DNA of 64,000 bases, taken from the sequence record MH571750.1. One strand, written 5' to 3'. Each line of letters starts with the position of its first letter. Position 1 is the stretch's first letter. The position numbers were made by a program, and so were the translations under genes. A model generated the notes under the pieces. The model saw only the letters and a list, made by a program, of their open reading frames with translations, was not told the DNA's origin and searched no databases. This DNA comes from Escherichia phage vB_EcoM-Ro111lw. Positions 12,278 through 12,537 of this stretch are shown here, piece by piece.

Positions 12278-12306
12278 TTGACATTGAGATGTGACTACTT
12301 TATAGT
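12278..12306 (+). promoter_or_regulatory. Sigma70-type promoter (TTGACA-17-TATAGT) inside the tRNA array
   Basis: ttgacattgagatgtgactactttatagt read directly. Confidence 0.6.
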
Positions 12307-12315
12307 AACCTTAGT

Positions 12316-12537
12316 TTTCGTTGCGTAGCGTCTATTTTGCAAATTTAAAATAAATGCAAACGACAATGTTTTTCTGGCAGTAGCTTGATAGGCTAAACAC
12401 CAGTGAGGTCTTCCAATCCCTCATCAAAGAATTTGGCGTACTCGCCCACGGTATGATTAATAAGGTGGGCAACATTCTAAAGGGTATCCCTTATGGGGCT
12501 TGGCTTAAATGCAATAAGTACCCTTTAAAATGTTAAT
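12316..12537 (+). ncRNA. Candidate promoter-driven structured non-coding transcript (about 220 nt) ending in an AAGGGTA...TACCCTT hairpin
   Basis: No ORF; several local hairpins (TGAGG..CCTCA, GCCCAC..GTGGGC, TTTGCA..TGCAAA); preceded by promoter at 12278 and followed by tRNA-Arg. Confidence 0.3.

Follow-up and report, generated by a model that had tools for sequence, protein, structure and literature searches.

The 275-nucleotide (nt) gap (12263-12537) between the tRNA-Ile and tRNA-Arg genes of Escherichia phage vB_EcoM-Ro111lw appears to hold a conserved RNA gene rather than plain precursor spacer; positions are those of the 64,000-nt stretch of record MH571750.1 that was analysed, which we call the window. 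Judged from sequence, the RNA carries a message module of the transfer-messenger RNA (tmRNA) type without the tRNA-like domain, behind a 5' arm that is antisense to the tmRNA of the host. With a probability of roughly 0.4, we propose that this phage RNA hijacks host tmRNA, masking the host template and supplying a tag of its own in trans. The original prediction for this place, a promoter-driven, structured non-coding stretch that may be a small regulatory RNA or a leader/processing substrate, was partly supported; the tmRNA-like nature of the RNA was missed in it. The parts of the RNA that bear on the argument are the following.

12313..12340, + strand: 5' arm AGUUUUCGUUGCGUAGCGUCUAUUUUGC, antisense to E. 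coli tmRNA nt 77-105
12333..12352, + strand: predicted hairpin UAUUUUG/UAAAAUA, from the minimum free energy (MFE) fold, directly upstream of the resume codon
12351..12388, + strand: resume context and tag open reading frame (ORF), UAAAU, then GCA AAC GAC AAU GUU UUU CUG GCA GUA GCU UGA
12374..12403, + strand: helix-5-like hairpin, CUGG 12374-12377/CCAG 12400-12403 and UAGC 12381-12384/GCUA 12392-12395
12404..12436, + strand: pseudoknot downstream of the ORF, like pseudoknot 2 (PK2) of tmRNA, stems A and B, from covariation
12444..12470, + strand: hairpin GCCCAC/GUGGGC with the near-invariant loop GGU(A/G)UGAUUAAUAA

The message module and its relatives

The start-less tag ORF comprises 10 codons and would encode ANDNVFLAVA, compared with ANDENYALAA in E. 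coli tmRNA. A second stop, UAG, directly follows the UGA (12389-12391), and the conserved core 12347-12391 reads ...AAAAUAAAU, then GCA...GCU UGA UAG. The UAAAU before GCA (12351-12358) places U at -5 and A at both -4 and -3; across the family U(-5)A(-4)A(-3) precedes the GCN codon in nearly all copies, and of the 26 distinct upstream sequences listed, 25 show U(-5)A(-4) and one, L008, has C at -5. SmpB reads a pyrimidine at -5, A at -4 and a purine at -3 to set the frame on tmRNA (PMC8363625). The family set, which is biased by the search patterns used, was assembled from two pattern scans of IMG/VR and from GenBank loci and contains 89 copies with 59 distinct module sequences. These 89 elements yield 27 distinct ORFs and about 20 peptides (e.g., ANEEMYLAVA, ANDDVVLMAA, ANDDLMMVAA, ANDEQFLAVA, ANDSEVLMAA and ANDNTFLAVA), each with exactly 10 sense codons and a stop. 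Codons 1-3 differ among the 27 ORFs only at the third position (GCA/GCU, AAC/AAU, GAU/GAC/GAA), the last codon is GCC, GCU or GCG with a single CCC exception, and the stop may be TAA, TAG or TGA. In three members inspected by eye, including the window, an in-frame stop lies 8-10 codons upstream and there is no start codon. The tag ORF thus appears to be under coding selection, and the constancy of 10 codons, the pattern of codon variation, the lack of a start and the -5/-4/-3 context provide strong evidence that the frame would be decoded in the manner of a tmRNA template and not initiated like an mRNA.

Local matches to the Rfam tmRNA families cover exactly this resume and tag region. RF00023 matched 12347-12408 at model positions 84-140 with 11.9 bits, well short of its gathering score of 47 (the E-value of 0.0058 applies to the short stretch that was searched), and a typical relative scored 23.6 bits with the permuted and 17.7 bits with the beta-proteobacterial two-piece tmRNA model, again below the gathering thresholds of 47 and 84 bits. 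The Rfam scan that had been suggested as a check of the original prediction returned only tRNAs at the gathering threshold, with tmRNA as a subthreshold match, and no family of Rfam 15 matches the RNA at that threshold.

The earlier statement that the region has no ORF held for frames with a start codon, which are only 27-47 amino acids (aa) long, and failed for the start-less 10-codon tag frame. We consider it extremely improbable that the gap is a small protein gene, either a 27-aa ORF (+ strand, 12453-12536) or a 47-aa ORF (- strand, 12332-12475). Both ORFs are present, and similar ones are annotated as hypothetical in phage UAB_Phi87 and others, but the 47-aa frame is broken in the Erwinia phage homolog, the region contains indels that are not multiples of three, and the 27-aa ORF lies inside a swappable hairpin module that is missing from phage HY02.

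Covariation was counted in an alignment of 30 sequences against a structure that we specified. Paired cells amounted to 92.1%, compared with 84.6% in column shuffles (0 of 500 reached the observed value), and sliding the partners by 1-3 columns gave 34-54% pairing. Both stops, UGA and UAG, lie in the loop of the helix-5-like hairpin (12385-12391), whose outer stem is 97% paired in the 30 sequences and includes one pair that covaries between GC and AU (20:10). Within the pseudoknot, stem A (UGAGG 12404-12408/CCUCA 12419-12423) is 96.7% paired with three covarying pairs, and stem B, between the loop CCAA (12413-12416) and UUGG (12433-12436), is 99.2% paired and occurs as CCGA/UCGG, CCAG/CUGG, CCAA/UUGG and GUCG/CGAC. 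Since all four pairs of stem B covary, a pseudoknot is established at the position of tmRNA PK2. Helix 5 (H5) and PK2 of tmRNA contact uS3, uS4 and uS5 at mRNA entry (PMC8363625). Upstream of the resume codon, at the site of the hairpin 12333-12352, typical members could form a PK1-like pseudoknot with stems S1 (AGUUUU:GAAACU) and S2 (CUUUG:CAAAG), which are 90% and 86% paired in relatives, respectively, by nearly invariant pairs; the window is predicted to have the simple hairpin instead. Beyond the PK2-like pseudoknot, the loop GGU(A/G)UGAUUAAUAA is kept while its stems differ (GGCCC/GGGC, GGCGGGAG/CUCCCGCC and GCCCAC/GUGGGC). PK3, PK4 and helix 2 are absent.

The ribosome-contacting parts of tmRNA are thus kept, and the invariant loop GGUGUGAUUAAUAA suggests a partner other than tmRNA. 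Both features would suit a decoy for binders of the message part (protein S1, the SmpB tail, RNase R or ribosomal mRNA entry), or some other ribosome-binding RNA, that acts without tmRNA pairing; we regard this as improbable, as it would not need codon-level conservation and would leave the antisense arm unexplained. Pairing of the loop GGUGUGAUUAAUAA with tmRNA was rejected, as inspection by eye gave only a 7-nt match, which the P1 variant lacks.

The multiple local hairpins described earlier are present, and the gap 12263-12537 folds more stably than its shuffles (z = -3.1; 0 of 200 as stable). The opposite strand is equally stable relative to shuffles, so that the folding check proposed with them is not by itself diagnostic of a structured RNA; the folding programs also ignore pseudoknots. 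The equal folding of both strands, the location inside a tRNA array and the lack of a terminator of its own would fit a non-functional relic or plain spacer, namely a decaying captured ssrA fragment within a tRNA precursor. That explanation has very little chance of being correct in view of the compensatory changes, the coding selection, the conserved dedicated promoter, and conservation in at least six unrelated phage groups, also in non-tRNA contexts.

A blastn search with the gap alone matched 598 phage records, and an nhmmer profile of the family matches window positions 12310-12496 with E = 8e-38. Close Felixounaviruses are 98-100% identical over gap positions 1-209 and differ in the last ~65 nt, and the segment 12347-12471 retains 71-87% nucleotide identity in unrelated phage families. 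Relatives include 46-kb Klebsiella and Aeromonas siphoviruses, Swiduovirus swi2, the N4-like phage Pollock, Erwinia Kolesnikviruses and ~157-kb Ackermannviridae (ECML-4, Ag3, S118 and others); by group, they fall into Felixouna-, Kolesnik-, Kutter-, Pollock- and T1-like phages, lambdoid late leaders and P1-like plasmids. In its phage relatives the element sits in long intergenic gaps, where the records show nothing or, in a few cases, a short hypothetical ORF. The lambdoid version is found in 670 of 5426 complete E. coli genomes (~12%), with 151 match places on chromosomes, one of them between a late antiterminator gene and a holin gene, and 568 on plasmids of ~90-100 kb, such as a P1-like plasmid that has it between a Dam methylase gene and tRNA-Asn. 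No RNA annotation is present among the E. coli matches listed. The element is kept outside tRNA contexts as well, since ARAGORN called no tRNA in the fetched locus of a lambdoid late leader. A pattern scan of bacterial genome contigs used a pattern that was too unspecific and gave no true copies among 120 returned loci. No description of the family was found in the searchable full-text literature, subscription-only literature lying outside the search. The RNA family is large and functionally unannotated: the most that records give for it is a short hypothetical ORF, never an RNA. The earlier suggestion of a small RNA with its own promoter gained support from the conservation across families, the non-tRNA contexts and the compensatory changes, and its other suggestion, a simple leader or processing spacer, has conservation in unrelated phages and lambdoid late leaders against it.

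ARAGORN detected no tmRNA in the window; 34 related IMG/VR loci likewise gave none, and four GenBank phage loci gave none that was credible. The single call, in swi2 (L006 2116-2490, tag AKAVRLRKCSFRCGECAG), has an ordinary tRNA-Met as its 3' half and an implausible tag, and is probably a false call prompted by the tRNA-like cassette beside it. A complete tmRNA was rejected, ARAGORN and Rfam at gathering thresholds giving only tRNAs, and no T-loop or CCA was found in 12313-12537. Two candidate tRNA-like domains were also rejected: tRNA-Arg, because the downstream tRNA varies among phages (Arg, Met, Asn or none), and the hairpin at the 3' end of the RNA, because that of the window has no T-arm or CCA and its relatives have G3-C70. 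In the Pollock copy an intrinsic terminator lies ~270 nt after AGUUUUCG, the 5' end of the RNA, and there is no T-arm. The RNA accordingly appears to carry a tmRNA-type message module without a tRNA-like domain.

A wholly phage-encoded two-piece tmRNA, for which this RNA would supply the coding piece and either the T-arm cassettes of lambdoid and T1-like phages or a gene outside the window the acceptor piece, is also improbable, to about the same degree as the decoy. The Rfam permuted and two-piece models do score best locally, and the hairpin cassettes of some relatives (see below) have GGUUCGAnUCC T-loops beside an acceptor-like stem, followed by UCC, but the scores are far under the gathering thresholds and the cassettes have G3-C70, not the G3:U70 required for alanine charging. 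Furthermore, the cassettes lie before the tag module in some phages and after it in others and have hypervariable interiors, the cassette of the window has neither T-arm nor CCA, the complement of the RNA 5' end AGUUUUCG (CGAAAAC) occurs nowhere else in the 64-kb window, and the Pollock copy is bounded by its terminator without a tRNA-like domain.

The antisense arm and the host tmRNA

In the family as a whole the arm is antisense to E. coli tmRNA nt ~68-105, and in the window copy to nt 77-105, which span the A-rich region ahead of the tag frame, the GCA resume codon and codons 2-6. The reverse complement of nt 68-105 of E. coli K-12 tmRNA is AGUUUUCGUCGUUUGCGACUAUUUUUUGCGGCUUUUUA; a typical phage RNA starts AGUUUUCGUCACGUUAGCGAC-----UUUGCGGACUUUUUA, and the window RNA starts AGUUUUCGUUGCGUAGCGUCUAUUUU. 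Smith-Waterman alignment to the reverse complement of tmRNA gave z = 5.7-5.9 for typical members (0 of 300 shuffles reached the score), z = 3.4 for P1-type and Ackermannviridae members, and z = 2.7 for the window and the Erwinia phage, with some shuffles exceeding the score of the window. All aligned members share one register, anchored at tmRNA nt 105. The tmRNA-complementary blocks are conserved while the linkers vary in length and sequence, and the anchor AGUUUUCGU is always kept, variant arm types retaining different complementary blocks. In the rare variant L033 the 10-nt anchor is present and so, judged by eye, is the block opposite tmRNA nt 68-79. Host codons 3-6 (GAC GAA AAC U), with which the anchor pairs, are the place where all phage ORFs differ from the host.

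The predicted duplex with tmRNA has an energy of -44 to -48 kcal/mol (z about -4 to -5) in typical members and -27 kcal/mol (z = -2.2) in the window, and pairing of the arm with tmRNA is predicted to be far stronger than with the remainder of its own RNA. When cofolded with full-length tmRNA, the arm interaction was present in every MFE dimer, with a net free energy difference (ddG) of -5 (window) to -19 kcal/mol; in the window cofold, RNA nt 1-11, 16-18 and 20-28 pair with tmRNA nt 95-105, 89-91 and 77-87, respectively. Just after the pseudoknot lies a near-invariant segment UUCGGCGCAC (UUGGCGUACU in the window, 12433-12442; nt 134-143 of the L039 module), which overlaps stem B, could pair with tmRNA nt 40-51 around a 2-nt bulge and does so in the cofold dimers. 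It may be a second tmRNA contact or a chance match.

We propose that during infection the 5' arm would anneal to host tmRNA nt ~68-105 (nt 77-105 for the window RNA), covering the resume codon of the host together with its first six tag codons and tethering the phage message module (resume codon, ORF, H5 and PK2) to the alanine-charged tRNA-like domain of the host and to SmpB. Stalled ribosomes would still be rescued by the machinery of the host but would go on to translate the phage template, so that the rescued proteins would end in (A)ANDNVFLAVA instead of (A)ANDENYALAA. The C-terminal ALAA read by ClpXP would be replaced by LAVA, LMAA or MVAA. The net result would be a two-piece tmRNA with its coding piece from the phage and its acceptor piece from the host. 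In the predicted fold of the window RNA alone, its own resume codon is buried in a hairpin with the arm and AGUUUU is free; we speculate that a toehold-type exchange upon tmRNA binding would suit such a fold.

The arm-tmRNA complementarity and favourable duplex energies also support an RNA that is anti-tmRNA only, an antisense inhibitor or sponge that covers the resume codon or induces cleavage and makes no use of its own tag frame. A 5'-terminal seed is typical of trans-acting small RNAs, which also counts in favour of such an inhibitor. So does mycobacteriophage DS6A, whose fragment consisting of the tRNA-like domain only has been proposed to inhibit tmRNA (PMC4131195). We nevertheless consider simple inhibition unlikely, as it leaves unexplained the 10-codon length, the third-position variation and the retention of a stop through changes among TAA, TAG and TGA, as well as the SmpB-type -5/-4/-3 context, the conserved H5 and the covarying PK2.

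Several points weigh against hijacking. The evidence is all computational, and we know of no case in which a message module is supplied in trans in trans-translation. A hybrid of ~30-45 bp might do no more than block tmRNA or bring about its cleavage by RNase III. The arm of the window is the weakest in the family (duplex z = -2.2, net ddG -4.9 kcal/mol), the shuffle controls preserve mononucleotide composition only, and the hosts share nearly identical tmRNA in the region targeted by the arm. The complementarity could also be the relic of an inverted duplication of a tmRNA fragment; such an origin of the arm is conceivable because the complement of the tmRNA-like part of the phage RNA itself resembles antisense tmRNA. 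Finally, the hijack model gives no role to the loop GGUGUGAUUAAUAA or to the 3' hairpin module.

If hijacking does occur, trans-translation would have its first known case of a message module acting in trans, and the RNA would represent a new class of host-takeover RNA. As tmRNA has been pictured so far, it is one molecule, or a pair from one gene, with the tRNA and message parts together; a phage RNA that has only the message part and an arm against host tmRNA implies phage manipulation of ribosome rescue or tagging. Somewhat short of even odds, many enterobacterial phages may reprogram host ribosome rescue by a trans-acting 'replacement message' with a phage-specified tag, a claim that takes in Felix O1-, T1-, Vi1- and N4-like phages, P22/lambda-like prophages and P1. 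The family occurs in classic models (P1-like plasmids, P22/lambda-like late leaders, T1-like and Felix O1-like phages) and would bear on old observations of the dependence of some phages on tmRNA and on the handling of truncated proteins late in infection. For annotation, it means that hundreds of 'empty' intergenic regions hold the RNA gene. Should the hijack model be wrong, the RNAs would still form a new structured family whose start-less ORF is translated.

Promoter, 3' hairpin module and tRNA array

The ends of the RNA, its 3' module and its bounds are as follows.

12278..12306, + strand: sigma-70-type promoter, TTGACA 12278-12283, 17 nt, TATAGT 12301-12306
12313..12537, + strand: predicted RNA, ~225 nt, ends placed by promoter geometry and tRNA calls
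12471..12534, + strand: 3' long hairpin module, AACAUU/AAUGUU outside and AAGGGUA/UACCCUU inside, from a motif search
12187..12262, + strand: tRNA-Ile (ARAGORN and Rfam), upstream bound of the gap
12538..12614, + strand: tRNA-Arg(UCU) (ARAGORN and Rfam), downstream bound of the gap

The near-consensus promoter that had been read from the sequence, TTGACA-17-TATAGT, is present and matches 11 of 12 consensus positions, the top site in an 8-kb scan (9500-17500). As that scan found 19 promoter-like sites where 17.5 were expected, which is not above chance, the weight of the promoter rests on conservation. The layout TTGACA-17-TAnnnT, ~7 nt, then AGTTTTCG is common to T1-like phages and an Erwinia Kolesnikvirus before the homologous RNA, and the promoter stands at equal spacing from AGTTTTCG in MK54, swi2, pIS4-A and Erwinia phage Panisse; AGTTTTCG occurs once within the 64-kb window. 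From promoter geometry, the start in the window and in these four relatives is predicted at AGUUUUCG or 4 nt before it. For the window, the 5' end would be the A of AGUUUUCG, 7 nt after the -10 box, and the 3' end would be made by an RNase P cut at the 5' end of tRNA-Arg (12538); no terminator was found between 12313 and tRNA-Arg. The start AGUUUUCG(U) is invariant, save for A/G at the first base, in 80 of 82 checkable copies. In other relatives the start of the RNA follows a processing site or a terminator and not a dedicated promoter as here: in lambdoid prophages AGUUUUCG comes directly after a hairpin cassette ending ...UGCUCUUUCC, and in P1-like plasmids it comes after a terminator. In a Felixounavirus subgroup represented by phage UAB_Phi87 (L215 315-410), ~95 nt are inserted between the -10 box and AGTTTTCG, so that the 5' end there must arise otherwise, from another promoter or by processing.

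Folding also places the promoter at 12278 within a predicted hairpin (about 12269-12303). The stem sequence of 12480-12525 recurs in a second hairpin, AAAGGGTA...TACCCTTT at 10712-10743, just upstream of the tRNA array; the -35 box of another promoter, TTGACA-17-TAATAT, lies within this second hairpin. T4-type phages have 'promoter stem-loop' cassettes, which a promoter placed in this way brings to mind.

The AAGGGTA...TACCCTT stem noted earlier ahead of tRNA-Arg was found at 12480-12525, ending 12 nt before that gene. It encloses a 27-mer, UCCCUUAUGGGGCUUGGCUUAAAUGCA (12487-12513), which is the second conserved element of the gap and is 100% identical in more than 360 E. coli records (prophages and P1-like plasmids). 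Other phages have the 27-mer between CACAACAGGUAAGAGCA and UGCUCUUUCCGUUGUG, on either side of the tag module, and the counterparts of the 27-mer module are 'CACAACAGGU-AAGAGCA ... UGCUCUU-UCC-GUUGUG' hairpin cassettes; phage HY02 has a different hairpin in place of the 3' module. The 3' hairpin appears on this comparison to be a separate, swappable module rather than a terminator, which could serve in end protection or processing or be an independent RNA. The 27-mer matched tmRNA, in sense and antisense, no better than shuffles did.

Strings of such cassettes, from CACAACAGGU-AAGAGCA to UGCUCUU-UCC-GUUGUG, occur in lambdoid, T1-like and P1-like phages (L003 2105-2200; L006 2105-2225; L127 2680-2760 and 3116 onward; late leaders L008, L014, L022, L033 and L039). 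Their interiors are hypervariable, some having T-arms (GGUUCGAnUCC) and some the 27-mer of the window, and their order is shuffled relative to the tag module and the tRNA genes. The cassettes look like a modular RNA array.

The window comes from a Felix O1-like phage; 12200-12620 shares 99.5% identity with both Escherichia coli O157 typing phage 15 and a Felixounavirus isolate. Its tRNA array consists of 26 genes on the + strand (10867-16535; ARAGORN, Rfam), and in Klebsiella phage MK54 tRNA-Arg(UCU) is likewise the next gene after the RNA element. A tRNA-Trp(CCA)-like sequence at ~12760-12835 was called neither by ARAGORN nor by Rfam at threshold; as the matching place in KP869113 is annotated tRNA-Trp, the array probably comprises 27 tRNAs. 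A 427-nt gap without a tRNA call (11528-11954) contains a T-arm-like GGTTCGATTCC and tRNA-like fragments at 11700-11800; these could represent a tRNA in decay, an atypical tRNA or a further RNA module. Several tRNA spacers share the motif CAGAAGACC(N3-5)ACAGCAA (11037-11060, 11203-11226, 11588-11610 and 11679-11700), with GGTCTGG 40-90 nt further on (11100-11110, 11256-11266, 11655-11665 and 11800-11810); the parts AGACC and GGTCT are mutually complementary, and the repeat may be a hairpin or processing element. BLAST found no RNA modules shared with other gaps of the array. A Cys/His-rich 137-aa ORF within the array (13538-13951; Pfam HNH endonuclease, 17.4 bits against a cutoff of 21.4) probably encodes a homing endonuclease; KP869113 does not have it at the matching position, where tRNA-Gly and tRNA-Thr adjoin. 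Directly upstream of the array, 9286-10701 encodes a 471-aa protein that matches DUF2828 and DUF7788 and has no sequence relatives among solved structures.

Comparison with known systems

Stable non-tRNA RNAs within a phage tRNA cluster are known from T4, whose 'species 1 / species 2' RNAs (RNA C and RNA D) are released by tRNA-processing enzymes. We found no sequence relationship to RNA C or RNA D, and T4-like phages are not among the matches of the spacer. AgvB and AsxR, anti-small RNAs of prophages in pathogenic E. coli, are likewise phage RNAs that base-pair with an abundant host regulatory RNA, but they are short mimics of mRNA target sites and are not known to carry a translatable module or to target tmRNA.

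With tmRNA itself (SsrA, RF00023) the phage RNA shares a start-less ORF led by a GCN alanine codon, with a pyrimidine at -5, A at -4 and a purine at -3 and with 10 codons as in E. coli; a tag of the form AND-x-x-aromatic/aliphatic with an Ala/Val-rich C-terminus; and stops in the helix 5 loop with a pseudoknot right after and a structured element before the resume codon. It differs in having no acceptor stem with G3:U70, T-arm, CCA, helix 2, PK3 or PK4, in its length of ~170-225 nt compared with 363, and in its 5' end, which is antisense and not the acceptor-stem strand.

Phage genes that touch trans-translation are shared with the Bxz1 group, phage G and DS6A (PMC4131195), and DS6A demonstrates that a partial tmRNA can be kept by a phage (PMC4131195). 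In a 2014 census, phage tmRNAs were found only in mycobacteriophages and Bacillus phage G, plus the DS6A fragment, and none was reported from enterobacterial phages (PMC4131195). The tmRNAs of the Bxz1 group, phage G and DS6A differ from the phage RNA described here in being complete or, in the case of the fragment, the opposite half, a tRNA-like domain without a message.

The two-piece tmRNAs of alpha- and beta-proteobacteria and cyanobacteria (RF01849-51, RF04321) have a separate coding RNA, and RNA-RNA pairing could serve both systems; the resume region of the phage RNA, AUAAAU|GCx AAC GAU GA, resembles the beta-proteobacterial two-piece consensus. In those tmRNAs, however, both pieces come from one permuted gene and are paired through the acceptor stem and helix 2, whereas the phage RNA has no acceptor piece nearby, its upstream neighbour being an ordinary tRNA-Ile, and its proposed partner is the intact tmRNA of the host, which it would pair at the message region.

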